Shown: one piece after another, positions 1 through 37,779 of the stretch
Layout: each line of letters begins with the position of its first letter
How positions within the stretch are numbered: the first letter of the stretch is position 1
From: Alphaproteobacteria bacterium
Lineage (GTDB): Bacteria; Pseudomonadota; Alphaproteobacteria; RF32; CAG-239
DNA: 64,000 bases
NCBI GenBank assembly: GCA_900767645.1
Contig: CAAFZY010000035.1
Location: 1,130-65,129 of the forward strand
Direction: 5' to 3'
Notes under the pieces: generated by a model
Seen by the model: the letters and a program-made list of their open reading frames with translations, nothing else
What the model was told of the DNA's origin: nothing
Database searches by the model: none
Program-made: the position numbers and the translations under genes

Positions 1-1202
1 GCGGTAATAATTTTATCAAAGGCTTCCAATGCCCGACCTGAAGTTAAAATCTCTTTGGCTGCTTCATATCCTTGTCCGCCTCTCATGGCCGGATCAAACT
101 CAAGCACACGCCCCGCCAAAAACAAGGCTTTTTCAAGTAACCCTTTCGGCGCGTTATCTTTATTGCGCAAAATACGTCTGATGTCACGAGCCTCAAGCAG
201 TGCCCCTACTCCGGCACCGACCGGTTCGCGCCCGTCGGTTATCACCACGTCGGTTTTAAGACCTAAAACATCGCCGGCATATTCTATCAATTTGCGGGCA
301 TGAATGGCTTGCTGCGAAGTTTTAATTAATGTTTTCGGTCCAACTGGAATATCCACCACCAAGTGTGTAATTCCGGCCGCTGCTTTCAGCGCCAACAAAC
401 GCACAATGGTATAAGCCTCGTCTTTGATATTCAAATAAGCCGCCACCGACTGCAAAGCAGAAAGCGCCTTATAGACCGATAACGTTTTATAGCTGACCAC
501 CGCTCCGCGATTTTCTTTAATTAAACGCGCCAATTCCACCGGATTTTTATCAATATCGGCAAAAACACACATGGTGTGCGCTGACCCAAAACATGAAGAA
601 ACTTCCGGCACCACCACTTTCGGCATCGGCATACCATAAGCCGCGGCAATTGCCGTTACCAATAAATCGGTATTATTCCCCGGAATATCGCCTAAAGTAT
701 AACAGTCGGCAACAATATCTTCTTCATCCCAAAATAAATTTTTATCAAATAACAAAGCCTGTACAAATGAAACTATTTCCGGCGCAGTTGAAAATGCGCT
801 GAACGCGCTTAAAAACGCCGCAATATCTATATTAGAATACTTGCGTTGCAAAATATCTCCGACAATAGATTTATATTCTCCGGCAGTTAAAATGTTGCCC
901 TGTATTTTGCGCTTTACCGCTTTTATGCTTTGCGGCGCATCAGCAAGCACCATTGTAACTCTCGCTCCTTCCGGAAGACCCAGCATATCAAACGCCTCAG
1001 CATTTAATCCCAACTCATCAGGCTGCACTAGCGAGATGTCATCGGTCACTTGCAAAAAGGCATTAAGCGTAACCGCCCCGCCATGAATTTCAACCCGCGT
1101 CATCGTTCGTATATCATCGGTTTTATAAGCCTCGCAATCGGTGTGCACATAGGCAATGTTTTCATTAAACGAACGAATGGGAACATATTTTAAGTTAAGC
1201 AT
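1..1202 (-). CDS. Putative thymidine/AMP phosphorylase family protein (glycosyl transferase family 3), partial: 5' end at 1202, runs off window start
   Basis: Minus-strand ORF starting ATG 1200-1202 (MLNLKYVPIRSFNENIAYVHTDCEAYKTDDIRTMTRVEIHGGAVTLNAFLQ...). N-terminal pattern and later GxGD-rich segments resemble the 'putative thymidine phosphorylase'/AMP phosphorylase subgroup. Not in ORF track because no stop within window. Confidence 0.6.
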   Translation of the reverse strand, partial: MLNLKYVPIRSFNENIAYVHTDCEAYKTDDIRTMTRVEIHGGAVTLNAFLQVTDDISLVQPDELGLNAEAFDMLGLPEGARVTMVLADAPQSIKAVKRKIQGNILTAGEYKSIVGDILQRKYSNIDIAAFLSAFSAFSTAPEIVSFVQALLFDKNLFWDEEDIVADCYTLGDIPGNNTDLLVTAIAAAYGMPMPKVVVPEVSSCFGSAHTMCVFADIDKNPVELARLIKENRGAVVSYKTLSVYKALSALQSVAAYLNIKDEAYTIVRLLALKAAAGITHLVVDIPVGPKTLIKTSQQAIHARKLIEYAGDVLGLKTDVVITDGREPVGAGVGALLEARDIRRILRNKDNAPKGLLEKALFLAGRVLEFDPAMRGGQGYEAAKEILTSGRALEAFDKIIT

Positions 1203-1377
1203 AAAAGCCTCCTTTAAATGGCATAATATTGTGCAATTATAATAATCTTATCGTTTATTTTTGGTAAATAAAAACCATGAACATCAACCAAAGTTCAGAT
1301 TGTAAATAACGTTCGGCGCAATATATCTGTAAACGCTGTAACATACAAAGTTTAACCATTATTTTAGGAGAAAATAA

Positions 1378-1482
1378 ATGACATGCGGATGCAGCGGTGC
1401 AAAACCGTCTTCAAAAGAAACCCACTCTTCAACCGTAAAACCTGAAAAATCAGTTTCTGCGGAAAAAGAACACGATAAATAA
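1378..1482 (+). CDS. Small Cys-containing peptide (34 aa, MTCGCSGAKPSSKETHSSTVKPEKSVSAEKEHDK)
   Basis: ATG preceded by AGGAG 8 nt upstream. Short, lysine/serine-rich with N-terminal CGC motif. Below ORF-track size cutoff. Confidence 0.3.
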   Translation: MTCGCSGAKPSSKETHSSTVKPEKSVSAEKEHDK

Positions 1483-1761
1483 ACGGCTAATCCCTCGTTT
1501 TCCCCGCTATGTGCAATGAGCTGCCCGATTTCAGGAACAGCGCGTATGGCGGGGTTTTATTTTGCCGTCCAAATTGCTGAGTATACCCCTGCCAAAACAA
1601 CGACAATATTATAAACAACTTCTTTATCATACAATGTAACCGCATTATTTTAAATAAGCGGTTATTGTTTATGGCAAAAGCAAAAATTTTCTGCAAAGAT
1701 AACAAAAAAACTCTTGCATTTATATTTTTTTTATTTTACATATAACCCATCGCCAAGTTAT

Positions 1762-1836
1762 TGGGGTGTCGCCAAGTGGTAAGGCATCGGCTTTTGGTGC
1801 CGACATTCGTAGGTTCGAATCCTGCCACCCCAGCCA
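1762..1836 (+). tRNA. tRNA-Gln (anticodon UUG)
   Basis: 75-nt cloverleaf. Acceptor TGGGGTG/CACCCCA plus G discriminator and CCA. Anticodon loop TTTTGGT; strong similarity to bacterial tRNA-Gln(UUG). Confidence 0.85.
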
Positions 1837-1846
1837 CAATAAAGAT

Positions 1847-1875
1847 AAGTCCTTGATATTCAAGGACTTTTTTTG
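1847..1875 (+). terminator. Rho-independent terminator after tRNA-Gln
   Basis: Hairpin AAGTCCTTGA-TAT-TCAAGGACTT followed by a T-run. Confidence 0.5.
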
Positions 1876-2001
1876 CGTTATAAAACGCATTTTTACGGCT
1901 ATTTGAGGTGATACACCATCCTGATACACCAACGCCCTCACCTCGTTTTCCTCAAATTTGGTCAGCATAACAAAGTTATCCACAGTTTAGGGAACAAATA
2001 A

Positions 2002-2187
2002 ATGCTGATGAATCGCGTGCAACTTAGAAACAATACCTGGTATTTTAGAGCCAGAATACCGGCTCCGCTGCAATATCTCGCCCCAGTCAAATATTTCTTC
2101 CGCTCTCTGCACACCGGAAACAGCAAAGAAGCACTTGCCAAGAGCCTGTCGCACAGTTATAAATTTATTAAGGCAAATATGATTTAA
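2002..2187 (+). pseudogene. Truncated tyrosine-recombinase (P4-type integrase) N-terminal fragment
   Basis: 61-aa ORF (RVQLRNNTWYFRARIPAPL...FRSLHT) matches only the N-terminal arm-binding part of phage integrases. Lies about 170 bp downstream of tRNA-Gln, followed immediately by unrelated genes. Confidence 0.45.
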
Positions 2188-2199
2188 TTAATCCTAAAA

Positions 2200-3543
2200 T
2201 CATTCTATAAACAAAGAATAAACACAATCATTAAGTTTCTTTTCTAAACTTGAATAATCACTTTTTTCTCTTGCTTTTTGATGAATTTCTTTTGATAAAG
2301 AAGCTATATTGTTGTGTGATTCATTATTTTTGTCGTATTTAGGCATAGCTATATATTTCAAAACATCGACGCCTCTGTTTGTCTCAATGGCATATCCATC
2401 TATCACATCTATGACATTTTGTGAATTAATTATTCCACAGACATAATATGCTTCCATTTCATCGTATAATCCAAGCATTAAAACTTTTGAATCAACAACA
2501 ATTTCTTTATCACTTGAAAACAAAGAAGTGTCAGCATCAGGAATACTTTTATTATAAGAACTCACTACAACAGCAGACATACTGCTTGTTTGTTCTTTCC
2601 ATAAAACTTTATATGGTGCATATGTATATTCGCCAACATTGTCCAATCTATAAAATGGATGAAGTTTAGGGTTAAAAAATTTACCATTTTGTATTCTTGT
2701 CTTAAGAAGCTCGTTCTGATAGTATCTTAACCACAAAAATGTATCAGGAGCATTCTTTGCCAAGTCATTTTCAGGTATTCCATATTTGTTTTTTTTGTCA
2801 TGCGGAACTAGCATAAATTCGTTTGATTTAACTGTCCACCTGGAAATGTTTCGTCCTCCCAACATTGGGTAAACATACTTTTCTTCAATTGTTCCCGGAT
2901 GTGCACCTTTCTGAAGTATATCCTCTCTTCTCTGTCTTGATATATCATTTTCTATCCTCAGGTACCCTGATTTTGCTTTTTTAGGTTTATTTAAAATATA
3001 TACCCCTTTTGCACCAGCCGGCTCAATACCTTTACGACCTTTATAGTATCTACGCTTTGATGCATTTAAAACATTATTAGCAAAATTCATATCTTTTAAT
3101 GTTAACCATGCCGATTGTAAATCTTTTGGATCAACAGGCTGAGCTGTTAAAGATTCGCTTTCTAACATTTGAACAACATCATTCCATGAACAGTGTGAAT
3201 CTATTTTGCTTTTTTTCCCTTTCTGTCGATAAACGACATACTGTTCCATGGGATAAGACATTTCTTTGCCTTTTTCAAAATTTATTGCTACTGTAGGCAC
3301 TGTAAAAAGTTTGACATCTGAAAAGTCATGTACAGTATTAATTGCAAAAGGAACATCTTGACCTTTTCGAATAATTTTTAATTTTCTAAACCCTTCACCA
3401 CCTTTAGTGGATTTGAGAAATGATGCAGGTAAAAGAAACACCATTTGTCCATTATTCTTAAGATACTGATCTATTGCAACATACGTAACGGCCATTCCAA
3501 AATCATCGTGGGTAGTTTTTTTTATCATATGAATTTTTTTCAA
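2200..3543 (-). CDS. Type IIG restriction-modification enzyme, C-terminal part (post-NPPW methyltransferase motifs plus putative target-recognition domain), out of frame with upstream part
   Basis: 447-aa ORF whose N-terminus (…MVFLLPASFLKSTKGGEGFRKLKII…) looks like the MTase segment that normally follows motif IV. Overlaps the upstream ORF by 41 nt. First ATG (3528) sits directly on the A8 tract. Deleting one A fuses both ORFs into a ~1100-aa protein. Confidence 0.6.
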   Translation of the reverse strand: MKKIHMIKKTTHDDFGMAVTYVAIDQYLKNNGQMVFLLPASFLKSTKGGEGFRKLKIIRKGQDVPFAINTVHDFSDVKLFTVPTVAINFEKGKEMSYPMEQYVVYRQKGKKSKIDSHCSWNDVVQMLESESLTAQPVDPKDLQSAWLTLKDMNFANNVLNASKRRYYKGRKGIEPAGAKGVYILNKPKKAKSGYLRIENDISRQRREDILQKGAHPGTIEEKYVYPMLGGRNISRWTVKSNEFMLVPHDKKNKYGIPENDLAKNAPDTFLWLRYYQNELLKTRIQNGKFFNPKLHPFYRLDNVGEYTYAPYKVLWKEQTSSMSAVVVSSYNKSIPDADTSLFSSDKEIVVDSKVLMLGLYDEMEAYYVCGIINSQNVIDVIDGYAIETNRGVDVLKYIAMPKYDKNNESHNNIASLSKEIHQKAREKSDYSSLEKKLNDCVYSLFIE

Positions 3544-5488
3544 AAATACCGTAACTTTTCCAAATAGATAAAGTTCCTTCTCTATAGCTATGACTCATAG
3601 ATTTCCATGCAATCCATGGAGGATTTCCCACCACAAAATCAAACTTATTACCTATCATTGTCGGAGCAAAACTATTTCTCAAGATAATAGGCCAAAATGA
3701 ATCTTTACCACTTCTATGTAAAACATATAATCTATCAAAAAGTTTTTTGACAATACTGATGTCATCTTTCGAAATCAACTGTTTACCTAAAACACAATTT
3801 ATAAAGTTTTCATAATCTGCTTTTTCGTGAATAAACGAACTTAAAAGGGTTAAAAATTCATTTCCTTTAGCATAACTTTCAAACTTTGGTAACTCAAATA
3901 TTCCAACTGATGTTTTTAAATTCAAAACTCTACCGTTCTCTTCCGTATAAACAACTGGAGATAATATTGAATCTGCTACAAAAACAGGTATACTAATAGG
4001 TTCATCAAAATCATTTATATTATCAAAAAAGGCAGAAAACATTATTAAAATATAATTTGCTTTTGCAGCAACGACTGATATAGGATTTACATCAAATCCT
4101 ACAACATTATTTGTTATTTTTAATATATCTTCCTTTGTTAAATTACGTTGTTTTTGTTGAATAATCCTCTTAATCGTTTGTGTTAAAAATGGGCCTGAAC
4201 CTGCACAAGGATCAATTATTTTTTTATCAATATCTCCATCATATCCAACCATATCTAACACGTGCTCTACAATCCAATCTGGAGAGAAATATTCACCCAT
4301 CAAATGTCGCATTTTATCAGGAATTAATTCCATATACACTTCTTGCAATATATCTTGCACATTTTCAGGTTTTAAGACATAAGTACTTAAATCAAATTGA
4401 TCTATTATTGATAACGTCGTATTGACAATCTTTTCTTCGAATCCACTACAGGTATAAGTAAACCATTCCAAGAAATGAGCCTCAAAAAAATTACTCACAA
4501 TTCTTGTGCCAGTTTCGTTCGTTCCATCAAATAACTTATCAATCTCAGCCTTTGATAATTCTTGTTTACTAGTAAAACTAGGATCAATTAATTGAGATAA
4601 GAAACTATAAATCATAAGTTTCAAAAAGATATTAAAAAATGTTTGCATAGCAAATAAATATAATTTGCTATCAATATCCATACTAGCTTCAATCCCATAT
4701 AACTCTCTAATTTTAGAAGATACTTCGGTAAAATCCGTAGCTTTTGCATCTTCGCCATATAAAGTTCCAAAAACTTTATTCCATTCATTAAAAAGTGTAC
4801 GTACTCTATTACTACCCTCTGGCTCATTAAGATTATATATTATTTCGTCATATGTATCCATTATGCTACTACGCACAAAATCACTTTTAGCATTTATAAT
4901 TGATAATATATTATGTTTATTTAGTGCCATCTTATCTTGTTGTTTTAATAATAAAGCTAATCTCTTTATTCCTGACAACATGTCTTTTTTTTCATAATAA
5001 AACACTAAATTCAACGTCTGAGGTAATCTTATCTTAACTTTACTTGTATTAATCGGTTGCTTTGAGGTGGATGGTATAAACCTTGCAAATAAAAAAGATT
5101 TACCGTCAAATCCTACACCAATTCCTTTTTTCAATTTTGATAATATCTCTTTTTCATCATCACTTTCCTTAATACTTGAATCACTAATTATGTAATCATA
5201 TAGACCATGGTCTTTTGTGTTCTTTCTACCATACAAGGCTTCTTCAATACCTTTTTCTTTATCAAAATACCCAAATTCCTTGAACTCAAAAGAAATATTT
5301 TGAAATGTCGCATCTGTGCGACCTCCTGCATATAGAACATTTTCACTTTTGTACGAGGAATTTGCCATTAACGGATTGACCGCTTTTAAAATTGGCTTAA
5401 CAATTTCCGCATAAAAATGTATTTTTACATCGTCTTCGCTAAAAAGACTCTTTTGCTTAAAATTTTGTTCAATCAGCTTAAAATCCAT
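3503..5488 (-). CDS. Type IIG restriction-modification enzyme, N-terminal part (PD-ExK nuclease-like region plus N6-adenine methyltransferase motifs I and IV)
   Basis: 661-aa ORF. Candidate nuclease motif D-x8-EFK near N-terminus (RTDATFQNISFEFKEF) like MmeI D-x9-E-x-K. Motif I DPCAGSGPFL. Motif IV VVGNPPW 35 aa before the stop. Ends 4 codons after an A8 tract. Confidence 0.65.
   Translation of the reverse strand: MDFKLIEQNFKQKSLFSEDDVKIHFYAEIVKPILKAVNPLMANSSYKSENVLYAGGRTDATFQNISFEFKEFGYFDKEKGIEEALYGRKNTKDHGLYDYIISDSSIKESDDEKEILSKLKKGIGVGFDGKSFLFARFIPSTSKQPINTSKVKIRLPQTLNLVFYYEKKDMLSGIKRLALLLKQQDKMALNKHNILSIINAKSDFVRSSIMDTYDEIIYNLNEPEGSNRVRTLFNEWNKVFGTLYGEDAKATDFTEVSSKIRELYGIEASMDIDSKLYLFAMQTFFNIFLKLMIYSFLSQLIDPSFTSKQELSKAEIDKLFDGTNETGTRIVSNFFEAHFLEWFTYTCSGFEEKIVNTTLSIIDQFDLSTYVLKPENVQDILQEVYMELIPDKMRHLMGEYFSPDWIVEHVLDMVGYDGDIDKKIIDPCAGSGPFLTQTIKRIIQQKQRNLTKEDILKITNNVVGFDVNPISVVAAKANYILIMFSAFFDNINDFDEPISIPVFVADSILSPVVYTEENGRVLNLKTSVGIFELPKFESYAKGNEFLTLLSSFIHEKADYENFINCVLGKQLISKDDISIVKKLFDRLYVLHRSGKDSFWPIILRNSFAPTMIGNKFDFVVGNPPWIAWKSMSHSYREGTLSIWKSYGIFEKNSYDKKNYPR
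3516..3523 (-). repeat. Homopolymeric A8 (T8 on + strand) tract at the frameshift point of the type IIG R-M gene; second T7 tract at 3534-3540
   Basis: Direct reading of sequence: ggtagTTTTTTTTatcatatgaaTTTTTTTc. Confidence 0.9.
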
Positions 5489-5668
5489 TTTATAACCTTT
5501 GTTATTCTAATACGACATAAAACCTGTTCTATAATTATAATTTATTTATATTCTAAAATCAATCAGACAAATACAATATTAACATTTCTTATATTTCTTT
5601 GTGCAAAAGATAAATTTATTGTGGTAGAATGCTTCTTTTATTCATACCATAATGTGAGGAGGTACATT

Positions 5669-7291
5669 ATGGCAACGATACGTAAAGTTATAATTTGTAA
5701 TTACAAGCAATTCAGAGATTTCTCTATTGATTTAAATGAAGATGTAAATATTGTCGTAGCAGACAATGAAAATGGTAAATCGACATTATTTGAAGCAATT
5801 CATTTAGCATTAACTGGAAAGATAAATAATAAACCTTTGCAACAAGAATTAACCCCTTATCTTTTTAATATTGACTGTATTAAAGACTATATTCAACAAT
5901 TAAATAACAAATCTTCTTCAGACACTATATTACCTCCACCTTTATTCATTGAATTATACTTCAAAGATGAAGATAATGATGAACTAGCTCAATATAAGGG
6001 AACAAATAACAGCTTAAAGGAAAATGCAATTGGATTAAAAATTGGACTTATTTTTGATTCTGATTATATAGATGAATATAGGCAATACATTAGCAATCCT
6101 CATGAGGTAACAACTATTCCTATAGAGTATTACAAAACAGAGTGGTTTTCTTTTGCTTTTAGCCCAATAAAGTATGCCTTATTGCCTATAAAATCGCTAC
6201 TAATCGATAATATAACTACAAAATTCTCTAATGGTGTAGATAAATTTATCACTACGACTATTGAAGATATCTTAGACAAGAAAGATAATATTGCATTATC
6301 TCTCAAATATCGACAGTTGAAACAATCTTTTAGTAATGATGAAAATATTACCAAAATTAATCAGCAATTATCTAATTTAGATAAAAATATTACTGATAAA
6401 AATATGAATATTTCTGTAGATATATCTTCCAAAAGTAGTTGGGATATGGCTTTATCTTTGTATTTAGATGAGATTCCTTTTAATTTTATGGGTAAAGGGG
6501 AACAAAATAGTATAAAAGCTAAATTATCATTAAAGACCAAAACCGATAAGTATAAAGTTATTCTTATTGAAGAACCTGAAACTAATCAATCATATTCAAA
6601 TATGAGTAAATTAATTAATTTCATTACCCAAAATTGTTCAGATAAACAAATTTTCATAAGCACTCATAGTTCTTATGTGTTAAATAAATCAGGTATTGAT
6701 AAAGCTATATTTCTTAATCAAGGAAATGTATTAAAGCTAAACGAACTAACGAAGGATACTTATGAATATTTTAAGATTTTACCTGGATATGATACGTTAA
6801 GGCTAATTTTATCTAAAAAATCTTTTTTAGTTGAAGGTCCTTCTGATGAATTAATAATTCAAGCTGCATATAAACAGAAATATGGTAAATTGCCTATTGA
6901 AGATGGGATAGATGTTATTTGTGTTCGAGGATTATCATTCCTACGATTCCTTGAAATTGCTAACAAAATAAATAAAGATGTTACCGTTTTCACTGACAAC
7001 GATGGAGATTATGAAAACAATATCAAGAAAAAATATCAACAATATGAAAATCATCAACATATTAAGATAGCTTATTCAACCAATAATTCTTGGAATACAC
7101 TTGAGCCACAAATTGCTTACACGAACAATATAAGTACTTTATGCACAATACTATCTCTTGATGAGAAAAAATATGATAGTGTTGATAAAATTGCTGAATG
7201 GATGCAGAAAAACAAAACAGATAGTGCTTTGAAAATATACACTAATTCGTCACAGATAACCTTTCCTGAGTACATAAGTAATGATTTGTAA
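5669..7291 (+). CDS. gajA: OLD-family ATP-dependent endonuclease (ABC ATPase plus C-terminal TOPRIM), Gabija GajA-like
   Basis: GGAGG RBS then ATG at 5669 (the ORF-track start at 5417 is the longest ORF, not the likely start). Walker A NENGKSTLFEAI, Walker B ILIEEPE, H-loop ISTHSS. TOPRIM-like LVEGPSDE ... FTDNDGD at C-terminus. Confidence 0.7.
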   Translation: MATIRKVIICNYKQFRDFSIDLNEDVNIVVADNENGKSTLFEAIHLALTGKINNKPLQQELTPYLFNIDCIKDYIQQLNNKSSSDTILPPPLFIELYFKDEDNDELAQYKGTNNSLKENAIGLKIGLIFDSDYIDEYRQYISNPHEVTTIPIEYYKTEWFSFAFSPIKYALLPIKSLLIDNITTKFSNGVDKFITTTIEDILDKKDNIALSLKYRQLKQSFSNDENITKINQQLSNLDKNITDKNMNISVDISSKSSWDMALSLYLDEIPFNFMGKGEQNSIKAKLSLKTKTDKYKVILIEEPETNQSYSNMSKLINFITQNCSDKQIFISTHSSYVLNKSGIDKAIFLNQGNVLKLNELTKDTYEYFKILPGYDTLRLILSKKSFLVEGPSDELIIQAAYKQKYGKLPIEDGIDVICVRGLSFLRFLEIANKINKDVTVFTDNDGDYENNIKKKYQQYENHQHIKIAYSTNNSWNTLEPQIAYTNNISTLCTILSLDEKKYDSVDKIAEWMQKNKTDSALKIYTNSSQITFPEYISNDL

Positions 7292-8360
7292 TCGCTTTAT
7301 ACATTCTGCAGCAGGTACTGGGAAAACAACTAAAATAGTATCACTGGCAACAACATTAGCGGTCAGATACCATAAACGAGTTGTTATAACAACATATACT
7401 CGGGAAAATACCATAGAAATCTATGACAAAGTCATCGCAAAAATTGGCTATATTCCATCAAATCTATTTATATTGACATGGTACACATTTTTATTAAATG
7501 ATTTTGTTCGTCCTTATCAAAATTTATTCGGAATAAATCACAGAATAAATGATGTTATGTTTGTTAATCAAAAATCGGCACATTATACTAAAAAAACAGC
7601 GTTAACCCATTATATTAGCAATAATAAAATTTATAGTGATAAGATTTCTGAATTTGCTTATGAGTGCAATCAAGCCAATAATAACTGTATTATCGATAGA
7701 GTTGTACAATGTTATGATTACATTTTTATTGATGAAGCACAAGATTTATCTGGATATGATTTTGAATTAATATCAGCACTATTGGCTTCCAAATGTAATA
7801 TTGTTCTGGTTGGTGATGCTAGGCAAACTTCATATCAGACAACACCTTCATCTAAAAATAATCAGTATAATTGGAATCTATATAAATATTTTGAAGACCA
7901 ATCTAAAAAGAAATTAGGAAAATTAACTTATCTCAATAAATCATATCGATGTAACCAATCAATTTGCTCTTTTGCAGACAGAATATTCCCTGACTATCCT
8001 ACTACAAGTTCTGCTAATACTAGAACAACAGAACACGATGGGATTTTTATAGTACAAGAAAAAGATTTTCTACAGTATCTAGATACATTCAAACCTAAAA
8101 TTTTAATATGGGATAAAAAGTCTTTGAAAAGGACACAAGGATATCCAGCCCTTAATATTGGTTTATCAAAAGGCAAAACTTATGATAGAGTTTTAATTAT
8201 TCCAACAAAGCCAATGATTAAATTTTTAACGCAAGGAATTACTGATAAAAACTATAAATTCTATATAGCTGTAACAAGAGCCAGGTATAGTGTAGCTTTT
8301 TTACTAGACAAACCTTTAAATATTACTCATACAGATATTCATCTATGGCAACCATTATAA
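7281..8360 (+). CDS. gajB: Compact UvrD/PcrA-like superfamily-1 helicase, Gabija GajB-like
   Basis: Overlaps gajA stop by 11 nt (operon). Motifs AAGTGKT (I), FIDEAQD (II), LVGDARQ (III), SYRCNQSI (IV), GLSKGKTYDRVLII (V), YIAVTRAR (VI), all within 359 aa. Confidence 0.65.
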   Translation: MICNRFIHSAAGTGKTTKIVSLATTLAVRYHKRVVITTYTRENTIEIYDKVIAKIGYIPSNLFILTWYTFLLNDFVRPYQNLFGINHRINDVMFVNQKSAHYTKKTALTHYISNNKIYSDKISEFAYECNQANNNCIIDRVVQCYDYIFIDEAQDLSGYDFELISALLASKCNIVLVGDARQTSYQTTPSSKNNQYNWNLYKYFEDQSKKKLGKLTYLNKSYRCNQSICSFADRIFPDYPTTSSANTRTTEHDGIFIVQEKDFLQYLDTFKPKILIWDKKSLKRTQGYPALNIGLSKGKTYDRVLIIPTKPMIKFLTQGITDKNYKFYIAVTRARYSVAFLLDKPLNITHTDIHLWQPL

Positions 8361-8377
8361 TATAACTATAAAAATAA

Positions 8378-8802
8378 TTTGCTCGAGAACTGCGAATTCA
8401 CTCCAGCCAGATTGAACAGAGGTTAGATTTTTAGGTCTAATATCTTGTTTTTTAAGGATATTTTGCGGTTCGCAGAGGGTGTTTTTTGTTAGGCTTAAAT
8501 TTGGGCTGAAATTGCCCTCAAAGCCTTGTGTTTCCTCGGGTTCGCAAGATTTGGAATTTTGCCCGTTGTTTGAACGGTCGCTGGACACCGAACTTTCCAT
8601 GTAACAAAACGGCGGATTGAGTTCGTAACCGATGTTTCCTTCTTTTAATACAAGTTTTTTGAATATAAAATGTAAAAGAAGTTGTTTATTTTCGATTGAT
8701 TTTCCCATGCCACCCCAGACAATCTTTGAACTAGTTTCATCAAAAATATGACACAATCAAGGTGTTATGATATTTATGCCTATTTCTGGAGGCGCCATAT
8801 AT
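8378..8802 (+). repeat. Repeat family copy A (~190-bp element plus 235-bp internal insertion)
   Basis: About 85-90% identical to 18451-18647 over both flanks (ttgctcgagaac...gcggttcgcaga...tcatcaaaaatatgacacaatcaag...ggcgccatata). Copy A carries an extra 235 bp between the shared halves. Confidence 0.7.
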
Positions 8803-8818
8803 TTCATATCAAAATATA

Positions 8819-9055
8819 TTATCTATTTTCTTCAACATACTTTTTTAGAATTTCGCTATCCTTCGGCGCACCATTCCACGGGTCATATTCATCACCATTC
8901 GGATATTTTATTTTTTTCATTACTGCATACATTTTAGTGATAAATTCTTTAACGGAACAAGTCATATCTAAAGGCACTTGAGGATTATCATAAGAAACAT
9001 AATGTAACCCTCTTTGGTTTTTATAAAACTCCCACCATCCAAAGGAAACGGGCAA
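8819..9055 (-). CDS. Small hypothetical protein (78 aa; TTG start, possibly shorter from internal Met)
   Basis: ORF immediately downstream of rtcB on the same strand. No recognisable motif. Confidence 0.3.
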   Translation of the reverse strand: MPVSFGWWEFYKNQRGLHYVSYDNPQVPLDMTCSVKEFITKMYAVMKKIKYPNGDEYDPWNGAPKDSEILKKYVEENR

Positions 9056-9071
9056 TCACGATTTTGTATAT

Positions 9072-10301
9072 TCATACTTTCTTCCTTCTGAAATCTGTGA
9101 TTTCACCTGCCTTAAAGTTATAAATTGGCTTAATAATCTTTATAATTTCTGCAGTAGGCGTAATATTGTTTACAATATCATCCATATTTTTATAAGCCAT
9201 TGGACATTCATCAAGAGTATCCTCATTAATGGAAGTTGTATAAATTCCTTCCATAGAGCTTTTGAACTCTTCTACATTAAAATTTCTTTTTGCCTGCATA
9301 CGGCTATAAAGTCTTCCTGCGCCATGTGGAGCTGAATAGTTCCAATCAGGATTACCTTTACCTATGCAAATTAAACTACCATCACGCATATTAATTGGAA
9401 TAAGTATCTTTTCACCATCTTTTGCAGATACCGAGCCTTTGCGTAGAATCATTGCATCTGTATCAATGTAGTTATGAATAGTTGTGAAGGTTTCAACTAT
9501 ATGTAATCCTAGAGCTTCAATCATACTCTCTGCCATTGCTTTACGATTATACACGGCATACTTTTGCACGATTTTCATATCGTGAATATAATTTTCAAAC
9601 AATTTTCCTTCTAAATAAGCTAAAGACTTCGGAATATTAGTAATTACTTGAGATTTTAATTCTTTGATTGTCTTTTGTATCTCTGCTTGTCGCCCTTCTT
9701 TTTTCAATCTTGTAATTGTTTCTTCCAATTGCGAAGAAGAGTTATTGTTTAGGTGTTTGTATGCCTCTTCTTGATAGTATTCTGCAACTTGTTTGCCTAG
9801 ATAACGACTACCAGAGTGAACTACAAGGTAGATATTTCCATCGTCATCACGGTCAACCTCAATAAAGTGATTGCCTCCGCCGAGCGTTCCCATACTATGA
9901 ATAGCACGGTGTTTGTTGATTTGGCTTATGCATTGCAAATCCTCTATATCAATATTATTGATGTATTCGTGCGGAGTTTCACGAACAGTCATACCTGCAG
10001 GAATAGCAGCATATATAAACTCATCTAGTTTTTTAAGGTCTATATCCTTTTCTTTTAAGAGATAAGTAGCCATACCACAACCGATATCCACGCCTACAAG
10101 GTTTGGAACAATTTTATCTTTGATTGTCATAGTTGTTCCGATAGTGCATCCTGCACCTGCATGAACATCTGGCATAATACGAATTTGGCTTCCCTTTACA
10201 AATTCTTGGTCGCAAAGAGTTTTAATTTGTTCTTTGGATACATCATCCATAACATCCGTAAAAACCTTTGCTATATTATTATTTCCTTTTATTTCAATCA
10301 T
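9072..10301 (-). CDS. rtcB: RNA-splicing ligase RtcB (3'-phosphate/5'-hydroxyl RNA ligase)
   Basis: 409 aa with hallmark RtcB motifs: MPDVHAGAGCTIG, GGNHF, and the Cys/His-rich C-terminal metal/GTP site ...APHGAGR... Confidence 0.8.
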   Translation of the reverse strand: MIEIKGNNNIAKVFTDVMDDVSKEQIKTLCDQEFVKGSQIRIMPDVHAGAGCTIGTTMTIKDKIVPNLVGVDIGCGMATYLLKEKDIDLKKLDEFIYAAIPAGMTVRETPHEYINNIDIEDLQCISQINKHRAIHSMGTLGGGNHFIEVDRDDDGNIYLVVHSGSRYLGKQVAEYYQEEAYKHLNNNSSSQLEETITRLKKEGRQAEIQKTIKELKSQVITNIPKSLAYLEGKLFENYIHDMKIVQKYAVYNRKAMAESMIEALGLHIVETFTTIHNYIDTDAMILRKGSVSAKDGEKILIPINMRDGSLICIGKGNPDWNYSAPHGAGRLYSRMQAKRNFNVEEFKSSMEGIYTTSINEDTLDECPMAYKNMDDIVNNITPTAEIIKIIKPIYNFKAGEITDFRRKKV

Positions 10302-10486
10302 CTTTCTTCCTCTTTAATATCTTCAATTTGAAACATCTCTGTTGGTCCTTCATGATTATTGCACAATATCCTATTATCTTTGCAAAAACTGATTGATGAA
10401 TATTTTAATGGTAAAATAGTTTTACCGTTGCTAGTTATTAGTCCCTGTTTATCGTCCTTTTTGGCAACTAAAATACCATTTTTCAT
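10298..10486 (-). CDS. Small hypothetical protein (62 aa from ATG 10486; MKNGILVAKKDDKQGLITSNGKTILPLKY..., degenerate WG/KWG-repeat-like)
   Basis: ORF-track ORF 10298..10546 trimmed to first ATG. 4-nt overlap with rtcB start suggests translational coupling. Confidence 0.35.
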   Translation of the reverse strand: MKNGILVAKKDDKQGLITSNGKTILPLKYSSISFCKDNRILCNNHEGPTEMFQIEDIKEEER

Positions 10487-10610
10487 CACCTTTTGCGTTG
10501 TAATCATATTCTTCTTCGTGATAAAGTAAGTCTGCCTGATAATCATTATCCGTACGAAAAACTTTTATATCAGCCTGATAGTCGTAATCTGTTACAAAAA
10601 CTTTTACCAT
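10449..10610 (-). CDS. 53-aa acidic tandem-repeat peptide (MVKVFVTDYDYQADIKVFRTDNDYQADLLYHEEEYDYNAKGDEKWYFSCQKGR)
   Basis: ATG with AAGGAG 7 nt upstream. Two copies of a D-x-DYQAD(I/L) repeat. Overlaps the next small ORF in another frame. Below ORF-track size cutoff. Confidence 0.3.
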   Translation of the reverse strand: MVKVFVTDYDYQADIKVFRTDNDYQADLLYHEEEYDYNAKGDEKWYFSCQKGR

Positions 10611-10622
10611 GGTTAATCTCCT

Positions 10623-11225
10623 TTATTTATAGGTCAATGGATGTAATTTTTTATCATGCTCTTCTTTTTTTACCCATACAAGATTGGTAACGCTATTATT
10701 ATATGAGTTGTTGTCAATATGGTGGACACCCCATGCATTTTCTGGTTTTTCTAAAAATAATTCTGCAACAGCCTCATGAATTTTTACGCCTCTATTACTC
10801 CCTTCTTTATAGTTTACTTTTAGCATGACCTCCAGACGCTTGTCTCCTGGATAATTATTGTAAAAATTATGTAAATCAGCAATATGCTCTCTAAAATACT
10901 TTTTTTGCGTACTATTTAATTCTTCAAAAGCTATACCATACGCAAATTTATCAAATAAATGACCAAATACTTTTTTAGCTTCATCTATATTTTCAAAACG
11001 AGCTGCATATCCTAAATTGCTGATATAGAGACATTCTCGATAATACTTCCAAATTTCTCTAATTTGATAGCTCCCCATATATCCCATTTCTTGTTCATTA
11101 TTCTCAATCTTACCGACTGTCATCTTCTCATCACCATCATGCGACCACTTTCTACAATCAATCTGTCGAACGCTTTGACCATCATTTAAGAATATCGGTG
11201 TTTTAAATTTCTGTTCAATAATCAT
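10623..11225 (-). CDS. HNH homing-endonuclease-like protein
   Basis: C-terminal HNH_3 signature VKIHEAVAELFL...WGVHHIDNNSYNNSVTNLVWV. About 110-aa N-terminal region of unknown function. Confidence 0.7.
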   Translation of the reverse strand: MIIEQKFKTPIFLNDGQSVRQIDCRKWSHDGDEKMTVGKIENNEQEMGYMGSYQIREIWKYYRECLYISNLGYAARFENIDEAKKVFGHLFDKFAYGIAFEELNSTQKKYFREHIADLHNFYNNYPGDKRLEVMLKVNYKEGSNRGVKIHEAVAELFLEKPENAWGVHHIDNNSYNNSVTNLVWVKKEEHDKKLHPLTYK

Positions 11226-11252
11226 TTTTATTTTCCTTTATATCATCAAAAC

Positions 11253-11804
11253 CTATTTTATTATTTTCCGCTTGTCAATACGGTTAATCTGTTCTTTATA
11301 ATGCAATAATATCTTTCTTACTCTGTAGTTTTTATAAGTGTATTCTAATGCCGTTTTACCGCTATTATCACGTATATTCACATCTGCCCCATACTCGAGT
11401 AATGCTTTTATAACTTCAGGATTTTTATTTCCATACGCCGCCATAAACAGGGGTGTATCTCCATTGTTATCTCTGGTATTGATGTCTGCGCCGAGTTTAA
11501 GCAAAGCTTCAACAGTTTTAGCTGTTTTACTGTACCGAGCAACATAAAACAATGGCGTACGTCCATTATTATTGATTGCATTGATATCTACACCAGCATT
11601 TATCAAAATGTTGAACACATCTGATGTTGCACCATATTGTATAATCCTTGTAAAAGCCGTTTCACCTAAATTATTTTTGGCGTTTACGTCTGCCCCTGCA
11701 TCAATAAAAGCTTTTATAACATCAGCATCACACCAATGTGCCCAAAATAAAGGTGTTTCATTATCATTATCAGTTGCATTTACATCAGCACCTGATTGTA
11801 TCAA
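11253..11804 (-). CDS. Ankyrin-repeat protein, N-terminally truncated (open frame continues to ~11951 without a start codon, into a repeat element)
   Basis: At least 5 ankyrin repeats (…TPLFWA…GADVNAKNN.GETAF…). Translating upstream of the annotated TTG start gives a further in-frame ankyrin repeat (LDLNAKDERGFSVLFTSLAAVAKDNQEKIKLL) up to a TAG at 11952-11954, overlapping repeat copy B. Confidence 0.6.
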   Translation of the reverse strand: MIQSGADVNATDNDNETPLFWAHWCDADVIKAFIDAGADVNAKNNLGETAFTRIIQYGATSDVFNILINAGVDINAINNNGRTPLFYVARYSKTAKTVEALLKLGADINTRDNNGDTPLFMAAYGNKNPEVIKALLEYGADVNIRDNSGKTALEYTYKNYRVRKILLHYKEQINRIDKRKIIK

Positions 11805-11884
11805 AAGTTTTATTTTTTCTTGATTATCTTTGGCGACAGCAGCTAGTGATGTAAATAAAACCGAAAATCCTCGCTCATCTTTGG

Positions 11885-11930
11885 CATTGAGGTCTAGCCT
11901 CTTGTTTTTTAATAATATTTTGCGGTTCGT
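11885..11930 (+). repeat. Repeat family copy B (about 45-bp partial copy)
   Basis: cattgaggtctagcctcttgttttttaataatattttgcggttcg matches the cores of copies A (8433-8476) and C (18497-18540). Confidence 0.6.
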
Positions 11931-12187
11931 GTAAAGCCGTACTACAAAGCACTATTTTTGCAAGCTATACGAACCGGCTTTCACAACTTTTTTTATTTTT
12001 CAATACATTAAACCAGTTCGAATACAACCTGACCTTTGGGATATATGATAAGCATTTCAGATACCAATACCCGCCGCCAACTGCCTCCATGTAGCCGCCA
12101 TGGCAACCGGCATATCCATACTTTTTTAGATAATCACCAATTACACCTGCAATTTTCTATAAAGATTCAAGTATATATCTTACAACC

Positions 12188-13849
12188 TTATTTTATATTT
12201 ATCCTATCTTCCCAACTTAATTGCACTTTAAAATTTTTGCTCCGTAGATCATTTATTACATTATTCAATTGCATTTGGGCAAAAAAAGGAAGACGTTTTT
12301 CGACATTGCTACTAGTTAAAATTATATACTTTACAGTACTGCCTCGCCAATTTTCATTAATATGCTTAGTACAGTCCGGTATTTTTGAATTTACTGCTTC
12401 AACAAAACGCTCCGGTATTTGAGCATAAGTATCTGCAGAGACCAAACCCTGTGCAAATAAGTGGCTAAGAGAGTCTGGACCTCGTCTTATTTTTGAATGA
12501 ATAAAAACTTTTTGCTGAGGAATAAACACATCACAGACTTCTATTTGAGTATCATACACCACAATATGCTTATCCGCATTATCAAATAATTCTGCAGAAA
12601 GCTCAGAACTTACCTCTTTATTATAACAATATTCTCTCCTTACTTTTTTAGTTCCTAATGCTATATAATTTTGAATATTTTTATTAGCCCTATCAACACC
12701 AACTGAGCTCAACAAAACAGTTTTATCTTCAACCATCGCTATATTTGCTTTAATATCATTATATTTATCCCTATTTATATCAAATAACTCCCCATGAGAA
12801 ATAAAATAGACACTTCCATTTGCTTCAAATTCACCATATAAGCAATCAAGTAAATTCCATTTTTTTAGTTCACGTCCATCATCATCTAAAATAATCACAT
12901 TTTCACTTTCTAGCTTTTGATAGGTTAATTTTTGACCCTTTGCATACGTAGCGATATCAAAATCTGCACTTTCTACATCTCCAATTTTAAAATGATCTAT
13001 TTGAGCCAAATTAATATCGGTATCAGGTTCAAAGAAAAAGAAATCAGACAAATTATTTGATAATTTTTCTGAAATTATATCCTTCATATCATTCGTCATT
13101 TCGACAGGTGACAACCCTTTAAATAATTTCTTTTTGTCTTCTTCTGTTACAGAATCATAAATATCAATTAATTGACATAAACTTCCCTTCAGTTGTTCTA
13201 AAGAAATATTTTCATCCTCGTCATCAAGTATATAATTTAATGTTACATTAAGGGAACTATAGCTCCCCACCATTCCATGATAAAATTGTTTTTTATCTTT
13301 TGCGTAAGCCGTAACTTCTCTAATAACCTCATTATCTTTCAGCATAATATTAAAATTTTCATCATCAACCGATGCACCAAACATTCTATCTTTATTTATC
13401 GGGTTAGAGCTTATTTCTCTACTTTTTCCTCGTTTAATAGAAGCCCTCCCATCTACAAGCTCTTTATGTGCGATATATATACCAAAATATTTATTAATAA
13501 CTGATTTTTTTATAGAAAAATGTCCTGTTGCATAATTAAGTATAAACATATAATTTTTATTGTTTCTAGTAACAGGAATTAATACACTCGCTCCTTGCGA
13601 GAGTGTGTCTAATAATTTATTAGCAATATCTATTCCTGTAGTTTTTCTTAATTTCTCTGCCCAATCTGGTTTTTTATAATTTCCTTGTCTTCTATATATC
13701 ACACAAGAAGCATTGTCTAAATAAGTATTATAATTTTCAGGATAAATAATTTTTGACTCATCAAATTCTTCAATTACATCACTTAAATTCCGCAATGTAA
13801 CATCATTAGCCAACATTAAGGTTACATTTGTTTTAACAACTTTAGACAT
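12188..13849 (-). CDS. Hypothetical 553-aa protein, defence-island orphan (possible PD-(D/E)xK-type nuclease near C-terminus)
   Basis: Start placed at MSKVVKTN (AAGGA RBS 9 nt upstream) rather than the ORF-track start at 13906. No canonical NTP-binding motif. C-terminal VVYDTQIEVCDVFIPQQKVFIHSKIRRG resembles a D...E.K nuclease core. Confidence 0.55.
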   Translation of the reverse strand: MSKVVKTNVTLMLANDVTLRNLSDVIEEFDESKIIYPENYNTYLDNASCVIYRRQGNYKKPDWAEKLRKTTGIDIANKLLDTLSQGASVLIPVTRNNKNYMFILNYATGHFSIKKSVINKYFGIYIAHKELVDGRASIKRGKSREISSNPINKDRMFGASVDDENFNIMLKDNEVIREVTAYAKDKKQFYHGMVGSYSSLNVTLNYILDDEDENISLEQLKGSLCQLIDIYDSVTEEDKKKLFKGLSPVEMTNDMKDIISEKLSNNLSDFFFFEPDTDINLAQIDHFKIGDVESADFDIATYAKGQKLTYQKLESENVIILDDDGRELKKWNLLDCLYGEFEANGSVYFISHGELFDINRDKYNDIKANIAMVEDKTVLLSSVGVDRANKNIQNYIALGTKKVRREYCYNKEVSSELSAELFDNADKHIVVYDTQIEVCDVFIPQQKVFIHSKIRRGPDSLSHLFAQGLVSADTYAQIPERFVEAVNSKIPDCTKHINENWRGSTVKYIILTSSNVEKRLPFFAQMQLNNVINDLRSKNFKVQLSWEDRINIK

Positions 13850-14124
13850 TATATTTTCCTTTCTTAAAACCAGTAACAAAGATAGAAAACAGTTTTCTGT
13901 TATCACCTTAAATTTATAACATATAATTTTTATAATTTCAACAAAAAGTTTAAATATAAAAATAAGGCATTTAATTAGTATAGGCGCGGAGCACTTAGCA
14001 TTTCATAGCTATAAATCGACTCGCTGATGTTTGATGTTGTTTAATAGCTTATAAAGCCCAAAATATTTCTTGAAATCACAATCGTATTAATATAACAATA
14101 GATATTATTAAAAGGAGTTTCATT

Positions 14125-15039
14125 ATGATACCTAATTTCCAAGTATTTATGTTGCCTGTTCTTAAAGCTGCTGCACAAGGTTCTGTCAATATTTCTGATG
14201 TTGTTAAAAAAATTGCAGACGAAATGAACATTTCTGAAGAAGATAGAACTATAAAATTATCAAACGGAAACTCTCTGCTCTATGGGCGCATATCTTGGGC
14301 TAAAGCATATCTGTTACAAGCCGGATTACTAGAAAGTGTTGGTAGAGGGCAATTCACTACTACCGCAGAAGGATTAGCTCTTTTAGCAAAAAATCCTCAA
14401 ATAATAAATAACAAAACTCTAGAAAAATATCCGAGTTTCATAGCATTCCGAAAAAGAAGCAAAAAGTCAAAAGAAAAATCAGAAACTGATACTGAAAATT
14501 CTGATTTAGATGAGCTATCTCCAGAAGAAGCAATTCACCAATCTTTAGAAACTTTAAATTCTTCCTTAGCTAGTGAACTACTTAGTAGAATGTTAAAATC
14601 AACTCCGACATTTTTTGAAAATCTTATAATCAAACTGCTAATTGCAATGGGATACAGTAACAACACAGATGAGGGCTGGGAGCACACGGGAAAAACCGGT
14701 GATGATGGCATTGATGGAATTATCAACCAAGATGTTTTAGGTGTTGATAAGATTTATATTCAAGCAAAAAGATATGCAGACAACCACCCGATAACTTCCG
14801 CTGATTTAAGAAATTTTATCGGCGCACTGGATATGTGCCGTGCTGTCAAAGGTATTTTTGTCACCACTTCCGCCTTTACTAATGATGCCAAAAATACTGT
14901 AAAAAAATCATCAAAAAATATTGTTCTTATTGATGGCAACAAATTAACACAACTTATGATAAAATATAGCACAGGATGCAAAAACAAAGAGACTATTCAT
15001 ATTCAAAAAATTGATGAAGATTTCTTTGAAGAAATGTAA
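14125..15039 (+). CDS. mrr: Mrr-family restriction endonuclease (modified-DNA restriction)
   Basis: N-terminal Mrr_N winged-helix-like region. C-terminal Mrr_cat PD-(D/E)xK core GDDGIDGIINQD...IYIQAKRY...GIFVTTSAFT. Confidence 0.75.
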   Translation: MIPNFQVFMLPVLKAAAQGSVNISDVVKKIADEMNISEEDRTIKLSNGNSLLYGRISWAKAYLLQAGLLESVGRGQFTTTAEGLALLAKNPQIINNKTLEKYPSFIAFRKRSKKSKEKSETDTENSDLDELSPEEAIHQSLETLNSSLASELLSRMLKSTPTFFENLIIKLLIAMGYSNNTDEGWEHTGKTGDDGIDGIINQDVLGVDKIYIQAKRYADNHPITSADLRNFIGALDMCRAVKGIFVTTSAFTNDAKNTVKKSSKNIVLIDGNKLTQLMIKYSTGCKNKETIHIQKIDEDFFEEM

Positions 15040-15057
15040 TCATTTTAGTATACATTA

Positions 15058-16536
15058 TTAATACAGGCATAAACTATTTTCTATTATTTTATCATAATAA
15101 GACTGTTCATTTGCATCATCATCTGAAGAGCCATATTTATACTGGTACTGCATAGCATTAGACTTAGCCGTTTCTAGTAAATTAAAAAGCTCTAAAAACT
15201 TTTTTCTCCCATTATATCTTCTTATATCAGACTTTAATATATCATCTTTATATTTCAGGACATTATCTATATAAATGTAAAACTCTTTATATGTTGCAAA
15301 ATTGTCCTTCCCGACATTCCAGCTATTTACCTCCTGATGATAATTTTTTTCAAAACTATTATACTCAAGGTAACCATCAAGATTATATGCTCTCCGTGAA
15401 AGATCTTTAATGCTTAACATATTTTGCCTTGTATTCAAACCATATGATGAATCTGCAAACGGATGATTTGTATCTAAAGTAAGTTTATCATTGTATTTTG
15501 AACAAAGCTTATAGATAAGATATTCAGCCATTATTTTTTTGTTAATTTTGTTTGAAAGACATACAAACTCATTGCAAACATTTATTAACTCTCTATATGT
15601 AAGCTTTCCTTTATATGCATACTTTGTTATATTTTCAATAACCGTATTGTAACCATTAAAACCATCAGTATCTTCTATAACCTTCTTTTTAATTATATTT
15701 TTTAATTTAGTTTTAGATATATGAGTTTCTACTATTTTTTTATAATATTTTTCATCCGATGTGGGAAAAAGATAATTTTCTGTAATAAATTTTCTCATAT
15801 AATACTCAGAATTTTTAATATCGCCGTATGTTGACTGCACTGCCTGCACTAAAGCTTCGTTATTAACCGGCAATATTACATACAAATTATCTAAATCAAA
15901 AAAATGTTTTATAATTTCTAATGTTTTTAAAGCATAATCTGGACGACATCTATCTAGTTCATCAATGATAATTATTAACGGTTTAATACGGTTATTCACC
16001 AATATTTTAGCCAATTCTTTTTTAAATTCTTTCACTTCATCTTTTGTTTCTAAAAAGCTTTTACATAATTTTTCTAAATTATTTTCTATTCCTATTGAAA
16101 AAAATTTTAAATTAACTCCTACCTGTATACTAGATGATAACAATATCTTTTTGGCAACATTTGTAACCTTTTCTTTTAAAGTTGTTATGCTACTGTTTAC
16201 AGATGGCCTTAAATGCATTGTAAAATAATTCAAAATTTCTTTTGCAATAAAGCAAAACGGTGAAGGCTGATAATCGTTTTCCCACGCACTTATATATATA
16301 CAATGGTATCCATTCTTTTTAGCATGTTCACAAAATCTACTAAAAAAGTATGTTTTTCCCATTCCGTAAGAAGCCTCGACAGATAAAACATACGGATATT
16401 CATCATCTTCTATTTTTTTCAATAAATTATTGGCTAATTCAAGTGTCCCAGGAATAGCATCTTTCCATAAATTTTGTGTTTCAGCTTTAAAATCTTCTTC
16501 CGTTAAATTATATATATTAGCAAAGTCTTTTGGCAT
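15058..16536 (-). CDS. KAP-family P-loop NTPase
   Basis: Walker A SYGMGKTYFFSRF. Extended Walker B/KAP signature IIIIDELDRCRPDYALKTLEIIKHFFD. Start chosen at MPKDF (GGAGA RBS). Confidence 0.7.
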   Translation of the reverse strand: MPKDFANIYNLTEEDFKAETQNLWKDAIPGTLELANNLLKKIEDDEYPYVLSVEASYGMGKTYFFSRFCEHAKKNGYHCIYISAWENDYQPSPFCFIAKEILNYFTMHLRPSVNSSITTLKEKVTNVAKKILLSSSIQVGVNLKFFSIGIENNLEKLCKSFLETKDEVKEFKKELAKILVNNRIKPLIIIIDELDRCRPDYALKTLEIIKHFFDLDNLYVILPVNNEALVQAVQSTYGDIKNSEYYMRKFITENYLFPTSDEKYYKKIVETHISKTKLKNIIKKKVIEDTDGFNGYNTVIENITKYAYKGKLTYRELINVCNEFVCLSNKINKKIMAEYLIYKLCSKYNDKLTLDTNHPFADSSYGLNTRQNMLSIKDLSRRAYNLDGYLEYNSFEKNYHQEVNSWNVGKDNFATYKEFYIYIDNVLKYKDDILKSDIRRYNGRKKFLELFNLLETAKSNAMQYQYKYGSSDDDANEQSYYDKIIENSLCLY

Positions 16537-16737
16537 ATTCATTTCTCCGACTAATTTCTTTTTTAAGAGTATTATCACGTGTAATAATGAAAAACAAGTG
16601 TTTTAAAAAGCGTACGTCAGGATTCAACAGTAAGCATTACCCCCTAATCATAATTTTATTTGCTTGAAAATTGGTGGAATTTTACGTAGCATACATTTAA
16701 TCTGCTTATTTATCAACCAGATATAAGGTATCGCCGC

Positions 16738-36768: not shown

Positions 36769-36911
36769 ATATTTATCTTCCTTTCTGTTTTTTTATATAG
36801 GTTTATATAGGAAACCGCTGTTTTATTCGCAAGATTAAGCTTAAAAAAATGTTTACTTTTACATAAAATGATTGAACTCGCATTCATAACTTTATAAACT
36901 CAGAATACGGA

Positions 36912-37775: not shown

Positions 37776-37779
37776 AATT

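Follow-up and report, generated by a model that had tools for sequence, protein, structure and literature searches.

Cj0031 (cj0031/cj0032) of Campylobacter jejuni NCTC11168 is a phase-variable type IIG restriction-modification (RM) enzyme (Anjum et al. 2016, PMC4889913), and the type IIG genes JHP1272 and HP1353-HP1354 of Helicobacter pylori contain two homopolymeric repeats (Krebes et al. 2014, PMC3936762). Here we describe a type IIG RM gene that is likewise interrupted at a homopolymer. It occupies positions 2200..5488 on the minus strand of a 64,000-nt stretch of DNA from an uncultured gut alphaproteobacterium (contig CAAFZY010000035.1, positions 1,130 to 65,129; the whole stretch is called the window below), and a run of eight adenines (A8) on its coding strand divides it into two open reading frames (ORFs). 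An earlier reading of the letters, referred to here as the original prediction, took this run for a candidate phase-variation switch in an MmeI-like enzyme and named inactivation of the gene as an alternative. Our analysis points to the alternative: the gene is probably an inactive allele that arose by an ordinary slippage frameshift, not a programmed switch, and in this assembly it is a frameshifted pseudogene whose intact form is 1095 aa long.

Organization of the split gene

The A8 run corresponds to T8 at positions 3516-3523 of the plus strand. On the minus strand it parts an N-terminal ORF of 661 aa (5488-3503) from a C-terminal ORF that extends to position 2200 either from an ATG at 3528 (442 aa) or from a TTG at 3543 (447 aa). 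The upstream ORF has the C-terminus ...GIFEKNSYDKKNYPR (at length, ...SIWKSYGIFEKNSYDKKNYPR), i.e. it ends in DKKNYPR*, and its stop is the fourth codon past the AAC codon that closes the run. The N-terminus of the downstream ORF is LKKIHMIKKTTHDDFGMAV..., its sequence reading (L)KKIHMIKKTTHDDFGMAVTYV.... The positions of the tract and of the stop agree with those of the original prediction. The downstream ORF had been assigned to the -1 frame and is actually one base forward (+1) of the upstream ORF; the claim that loss of one A fuses the two is unaffected by this, as the frame stays open over 1095 codons, encoding a continuous 1095-aa protein, once an A is taken out of the run. Both fragments are on record. 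The exact 661-aa (P0121) and 442-aa products come from the source contig BRIT16-1_SAMN02333946_METAG-scaffold_113, a human metagenome assembly (ENA/NCBI), and the 442-aa C-terminal gene was called in locus L020.

The match of the fused protein to the PADLOC profile PDLC03625 REase_MTase_IIG scores 1114.8 bits and covers practically the full length of both (residues 6-1092 of 1095 against profile positions 9-1106 of 1109), which bears out that the two ORFs are the halves of one type IIG gene. Two Pfam domains pass the cut-off in the fused chain, N6_Mtase and Eco57I, and the latter (residues 460-727) spans the frameshift at residue ~657. The C-terminal ORF alone has no match in Pfam or NCBIfam.

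The frame break sits exactly on the A8 run and near-identical intact genes carry seven adenines (A7) at this place, a coincidence that is beyond chance. The A8 tract (3516..3523) is the site of the lesion. In the intact alleles the A7 run is part of GAT AAA AAA ACT, which encodes D655, K656, K657 and T658. We also considered a neighbouring A7 run, GAA AAA AAT (3534..3540), that lies 11 nt upstream of the tract. A deletion in this run would give ...EKIHMIKKTTH, as opposed to the ...EKNSYDKKTTH of all intact homologues, and its length is constant across all alleles examined, so it was rejected as the lesion. A -1 ribosomal frameshift on A_AAA_AAC was rejected as well, since the downstream frame is +1 and a -1 slip fails to restore it.

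Nature of the encoded enzyme

The N-terminal ORF (3503..5488) carries a putative PD-ExK nuclease motif (D59-x8-E68-F-K70, 5279..5314), a helical region and the methyltransferase motifs I-IV, among them motif I (DPCAGSG, residues 426-432, 4193..4213, with the Pfam N6_Mtase match) and motif IV (NPPW, residues 622-625, 3614..3625). The C-terminal ORF (2200..3528) holds the remaining methyltransferase domain and the target-recognition region. The motifs quoted in the original prediction are all present, and motifs I and IV of a gamma-class N6-adenine methylase are both found in one chain. Conservation was judged from an alignment of 38 homologues that are 68-92% identical to the intact protein P0001; D59, E68 and K70 of the nuclease motif, D426, P427, G430 and G432 of motif I and N622-P623-P624-W625 of motif IV are invariant in it.

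The AlphaFold model of the protein has a mean predicted local distance difference test score (pLDDT) of 72 and a predicted template modelling score (pTM) of 0.60. The pLDDT of the N-terminal residues 1-190 is mostly above 80, and the putative nuclease domain in this region is assigned from its motif. A Foldseek search with the model retrieved CamA (E=6e-15, template modelling (TM) score to target 0.62-0.66), M.BseCI, BrxX/PglX, MmeI, DrdV and LlaGI/LlaBIII. Judging from the model, the methylase is followed by a target-recognition domain (TRD), as in the solved relatives.

The term MmeI-like, used in the original prediction, describes the domain order and architecture well; it does not extend to the sequence or to the nearest fold. 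MmeI (5HR4) was only at rank 43 of the Foldseek matches (E=7e-11, TM-scores 0.32/0.44), behind CamA, M.BseCI and BrxX. With P0001 as the query, phmmer gave 0 matches at E<=0.01 against all PDB chains, and the family profile picked up no more than weak similarity to HsdM among the PDB sequences (E=0.03 and 0.33), 5HR4 not being one of the matches. In NCBIfam, only sub-threshold matches to the MAD2 and PglX methylase cores were seen, none of the protein-database sources gives an enzyme name, and no characterized member of this exact family emerged. From its sequence, the protein is best described as a type IIG enzyme with the domain order of MmeI and DrdV and not as a demonstrable member of the MmeI family.

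According to the original prediction, homologues in which the two parts are normally separate genes would speak against it. An exhaustive HMMER search found 1044 relatives at E<=1e-30 among 1.84 billion representatives, and since the matches listed are mostly single chains of ~1050-1130 aa, the halves are not normally separate genes. Pfam and PADLOC scans of neighbouring ORFs in the region from 55 to 16578 revealed no separate methylase gene among those examined.

Intact and broken alleles

Intact 1095-aa proteins that are 99-100% identical to the fused translation are present in the protein database from other gut metagenomes. P0001 differs from the fused translation in 2 residues (~99.8% identity), P0002 is 99%, P0003 92% and P0004 83% identical, and all of them are full length. 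Intact alleles of the clade with at least 99% identity (P0001, P0352, P0002 and P0353) occur on ~15 contigs, and nine loci were checked at the DNA level. These nine loci (L001-L009, encoding P0001 or P0002) all read GATAAAAAAACT, i.e. A7 where the window has A8, and tract length is the sole indel between them and the window within the coding sequence. A7 is also found at the tract in L032, and A8 is shared by the window and L031 (SRR13928126); all these alleles are at least 99% identical across the gene. Both the ON and the OFF tract length exist among close relatives, with intact A7 alleles being the norm, A8 being rare and no lineage being fixed for A8. A search for related loci in genome contigs gave only 65-70% identical homologues, from metagenome-assembled genomes of Lachnospiraceae, Bacteroidota and Bacillota. 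The exact flanks with a tract of 5-12 nt between them had no match in the genome, metagenome or viral contig collections, from which the allele of the window itself is missing.

Apart from the tract, other broken copies were found. L031 combines A8 at the tract with a change from A8 to A7 in the second coding poly-A run (2789..2796; A8 and in frame in the window), which leaves three ORFs. With two frameshifts, this allele is beyond repair by a single reversion, and the second frameshift suggests decay. L032 is frameshifted at the third coding poly-A run (3210..3216; A7 and in frame in the window), which is shortened from A7 to A6. L033, which belongs to the P0003 lineage, has retained only a 465-aa 3' remnant after a deletion. 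Three substitutions in the gene are private to the window; a synonymous one precedes the frameshift, and both of those downstream are non-synonymous (P840S and I1048M, the latter at a position that is at least 90% conserved). Even though they are few (n=3 in all), these substitutions give a weak hint of relaxed constraint after inactivation.

Changes of run length are general rather than specific to the tract, as the poly-A runs of the non-coding flanks vary too (window 1868-1874 as compared to L001 and L002, and positions 55 and 3629 of L032). Going by bacterial mutation spectra, length changes in runs of 7-8 nt are much more frequent per site than base substitutions, and since such runs are so mutable, homopolymer frameshifts should dominate the inactivation of any AT-rich gene of 3.3 kb without special selection. 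Two details of the flanking variation may be added. The non-coding run at window 1868-1874 is A7 in the orientation of the gene strand and A6 in L001 and L002, and it adjoins a terminator-like hairpin at 1847-1869. L032 (SRR29133786) differs from the near-identical L005 by three poly-A lengths (positions 55, 3629 and 6051) and 13 substitutions in 7.1 kb, a pattern that suggests either a homopolymer-error-prone sequencing platform or a lineage with raised slippage.

We propose the following scenario. In the lineage of an uncultured gut alphaproteobacterium, replication slippage would have added one A to an ordinary coding run, turning A7 into A8. The frame would break after methyltransferase motif IV, ahead of the remaining methyltransferase sequence and the target-recognition part, and translation would stop four codons further on. 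The 661-aa N-terminal product would keep the nuclease motif and the S-adenosylmethionine-binding motifs without the remaining methylase fold and the DNA-recognition module, and the C-terminal fragment would be devoid of catalytic motifs. As neither part has what the other provides, restriction and methylation should be lost together and, going by the domain logic of type IIG enzymes, such a joint loss would be harmless to the cell and not lethal. The A7 run exists because the invariant Asp-Lys-Lys-Thr is spelled GAT AAA AAA ACT in an AT-rich gene, and the tract would be no specially evolved hypermutable site. Reversion from A8 to A7 by a -1 slip would be feasible in principle, and both states of the tract probably co-exist in large gut populations. 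Taken as a whole, the evidence is more in keeping with a dispensable defence gene that is sporadically inactivated at homopolymers and decays than with a programmed switch, i.e. the inactivation that the original prediction gave as its alternative is the better description. The lesion is of a well-known kind in a well-known kind of gene.

Is the tract a specialized switch?

A true contingency switch, in which slippage between A7 and A8 would turn the enzyme ON and OFF reversibly at a relevant rate, balancing protection from phages against DNA uptake or autoimmunity and altering the methylome, is in our view rather unlikely. A part of what such a switch needs is in place: A7 and A8 both occur among alleles that are at least 99% identical, a single slip would turn the OFF allele into a fully conserved ORF, and the joint loss of restriction and methylation would be harmless. 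There are also precedents, namely cj0031 of C. jejuni, which switches at G9/G10 (PMC4889913), and the type IIG genes of H. pylori, which do so at homopolymers (PMC3936762). On the other hand, the length of the tract, its interruption by AAG codons and the lack of run enrichment in the gene all speak against this part of the original prediction.

As for length, a survey of Campylobacter phasomes used cut-offs of at least 10 nt for poly-A/T and at least 7 nt for poly-G/C (PMC6321876), and the H. pylori authors expect switching or reactivation mainly at repeats of >8 bp (PMC3936762). The tract, with A7 in the ON and A8 in the OFF state, falls under both the poly-A/T cut-off and the '>8 bp' limit, i.e. 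it is not of a length known for high-frequency switching. Its length is moreover dictated by the protein. Residues 655 to 665, D655-K656-K657-T658-T659-H660-D661-D662-F663-G664-M665 (DKKTTHDDFGM), are invariant among the 38 homologues, and because D655-K656-K657-T658 is encoded by GAT AAA AAA ACN, the coding sequence leaves room for a run of 7 nt at most; no run longer than A7 was found at the tract in any intact allele examined. Sister lineages interrupt the run. The P0003 lineage (92%; 10 loci and the L033 remnant) and the P0354 lineage (83%; 4 loci) have AAGAAAA, and 3 of 9 distant homologues have AAGAAGA; A7 is retained in the P0122 lineage and in the 6 other distant homologues. In cj0031, phase variation is regarded as blocked where the tract is interrupted (PMC4889913).

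Runs are not enriched in the gene either. It contains 7 runs of at least 7 nt, as compared to the 6.65 expected from synonymous-codon shuffling (P=0.53), and its lysine codons are predominantly AAA (83 vs 24 AAG). The window as a whole holds 76 A/T runs of at least 7 nt and 14 of at least 8 nt, so that an A8 run is in itself not unusual. The tract is thus neither maintained nor enriched beyond coding need, and its properties lend no support to the switch interpretation, which is weakly supported overall.

There are points that weigh against simple inactivation and need to be discussed. A8 is present at the tract in two samples, the window and L031, on haplotypes that differ at ~30 sites, which could mean recurrent slippage of the kind that a switch would give. 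All point disruptions that we found are 1-nt changes in poly-A runs and none is a nonsense mutation, and single-chain RM enzymes are known to phase-vary (PMC4889913, PMC3936762). The haplotype differences are, however, unevenly placed. They lie within gene positions 12-817 except for two changes that only the window has (2519 and 3145); apart from these two, the haplotypes are identical from gene position 818 on, and the tract is at 1966. The shared A8 may therefore have spread by recombination rather than recurred, and the second frameshift of L031 argues for decay.

A variant of the switch idea, in which gut populations would always hold both states of a short tract and phage pressure or a conflict with an Mrr-type nuclease would flip the majority, seems unlikely to us. 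If it were true, phase variation of RM systems by simple sequence repeats would extend from pathogens that lack mismatch repair to gut commensals, at tracts below the usual cut-offs.

Possible artefact or residual expression

The extra A could also be an artefact of sequencing or assembly, or a consensus drawn from a mixed population, in which case the gene would really be an intact A7 allele. The source of the window is a contig assembled from a metagenome (BRIT16-1_SAMN02333946 scaffold_113), homopolymers are classic sites of indel errors, and the A8 allele with exactly this protein is on record from the deposits of this one contig only. The three poly-A differences accompanied by 13 substitutions in 7.1 kb of L032 could be platform errors in that assembly. 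Nevertheless, we regard an artefact as distinctly unlikely. An independent assembly from another run (L031) has the same A8, and the two private non-synonymous changes downstream of the frameshift suit a truly inactive gene. Furthermore, although the 64-kb window has 64 runs of at least 7 nt outside the island in which the RM gene lies, none of its other genes is split at a homopolymer, which speaks against an assembly that is error-prone in general. This was judged by scanning for overlapping pairs of ORFs on the same strand with a homopolymer at the overlap; the sole other overlapping same-strand pair with runs, 36876-37775 and 37669-38853, shows no sign of being one split gene. The adjacent genes GajA and GajB are a poor control for the indel rate, as they have one run of at least 7 nt between them.

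Least probable is that the enzyme is still made despite the frameshift, by transcriptional slippage, by a +1 ribosomal slip on A8 or by reassembly of the fragments: the break lies in a loop predicted with low confidence (residues 650-659), the N-terminal fragment ends in ...YDKK and the C-terminal one begins with MIKKTTH... so that no residue would be lost, and cases of RNA polymerase slipping on long A/T runs are known from endosymbionts and insertion sequence elements, but efficient slippage usually needs runs of at least 9 nt, no Shine-Dalgarno-like sequence precedes the ATG at 3528, A8 is rare and fixed in no lineage while A7 is the norm, and the second frameshift of L031 indicates no selection for an open downstream frame.

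Genomic context

The RM gene, probably acquired horizontally, lies in a low-GC defence island. Its GC content is 30.6%, as compared to 39% in the remaining window, and the part that comprises the RM gene and a Gabija system (2200-8360) has 27-31% GC vs 39% from position 9000 onward. The Gabija system is complete (5669-8360, plus strand) and divergent from the RM gene. It consists of GajA (5669-7291, plus strand, 540 aa; PADLOC GajA, 649 bits), with AAA_15 and OLD-like TOPRIM domains, and of GajB (7281-8360, plus strand, 359 aa; 354 bits), a UvrD-like helicase. The pair of RM gene and Gabija is kept in L002-L006, L031 and L032.

Further along the island there are genes for an RtcB RNA ligase (9072-10301), an HNH_3 protein (10623-11225), an ankyrin-repeat protein (11253-11804) and a DUF6119 protein (12188-13906), all on the minus strand, followed by an Mrr-type (type IV, methylation-dependent) restriction endonuclease with Mrr_N and Mrr_cat domains (14125-15039, plus strand) and a KAP-family NTPase (15058-16578, minus strand). 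At the intact-allele loci L002 and L004, other genes are found in place of Mrr. One may speculate that a conflict between an active methylase and Mrr favoured the frameshift.

The surroundings of the RM gene vary between lineages. In L034-L037 (P0354 lineage, 83%) the orthologous gene is in a mobile-element-like setting with Bro-N, DUF2513, DUF3768 and a KAP NTPase, and in the P0003 and P0122 lineages it is flanked by genes for an autotransporter and a class II aminoacyl-tRNA synthetase. These different settings show that the RM gene moves between sites.

Two ORFs in the rest of the window can be mentioned. The one at 45990-47300 (minus strand) encodes a phage terminase large-subunit domain (Terminase_3, E=7e-15) and may be a prophage remnant; it lies amid chromosomal genes such as UvrA (41196-44006), a QueH fusion (44003-45106) and IleRS (50428-53514). 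The other (24959-28288, minus strand) is an ORF of 1109 aa that has no Pfam match at E<=1e-5; it falls into a cluster of 81 unnamed proteins that are 1108-1125 aa long.

Implications and comparison with known systems

The main consequence is for annotation, where a single frameshifted type IIG RM pseudogene should be entered in place of two genes. The locus also shows by example how the dispensable defence genes of an island (here type IIG RM, Gabija, Mrr and KAP NTPase) can be lost via their own most slippage-prone coding sites. Should the tract switch after all, the methylome of the strain and its barrier to phages and plasmids would vary within the host, and the length cut-offs used for finding phase-variable genes would miss such loci in AT-rich commensals.

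It is useful to compare the general features of this gene to the systems mentioned at the outset. Cj0031, likened to it here by its published description, is also a single chain of nuclease (putative in the window protein), methylase and TRD with more than 1000 aa and an Eco57I-type methylase domain. Both genes have a homopolymer inside the ORF, where a change of 1 nt gives two annotated ORFs and abolishes both activities together (as predicted, in the case of the window gene), and both have alleles with an interrupted tract. The difference is in the tract itself. That of cj0031 is poly-G, with G9 in the ON and G10 in the OFF state, and its switching is so rapid that 75 G10 and 13 G9 isolates were obtained from one colony (PMC4889913), whereas the tract of the window gene is poly-A, with 7 nt when ON and a length set by invariant Lys-Lys-Thr codons. 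The H. pylori type IIG genes resemble the window gene in having more than one homopolymer with strain-specific frameshifts, and some copies are doubly frameshifted, as is L031. Their repeats are poly-C/G, however, and the second of them alters the specificity through an added domain, while the other poly-A runs of the window gene just truncate the product.

The structurally characterized MmeI (type IIL, PDB 5HR4) and DrdV (PDB 7LO5) have the same architecture, i.e. an N-terminal D-x(n)-E-x-K nuclease (putative in the window protein), a gamma-class N6-adenine methylase and a C-terminal TRD, and both are Foldseek matches (E=7e-11 and 1e-9, respectively). They differ from the window protein in that no sequence similarity is found by phmmer or with the family profile, and the TM-scores (0.32-0.44) are weaker than those of CamA, M.BseCI and BrxX/PglX. 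The window protein is also ~175 aa longer than MmeI. A further parallel is provided by the ordinary RM pseudogenes that arise by homopolymer frameshifts. As in these, a 1-nt slip has occurred in a short run, intact orthologues exist in sister strains, and extra lesions and deletion remnants are found; the sole difference is that the same A8 state occurs in two samples.

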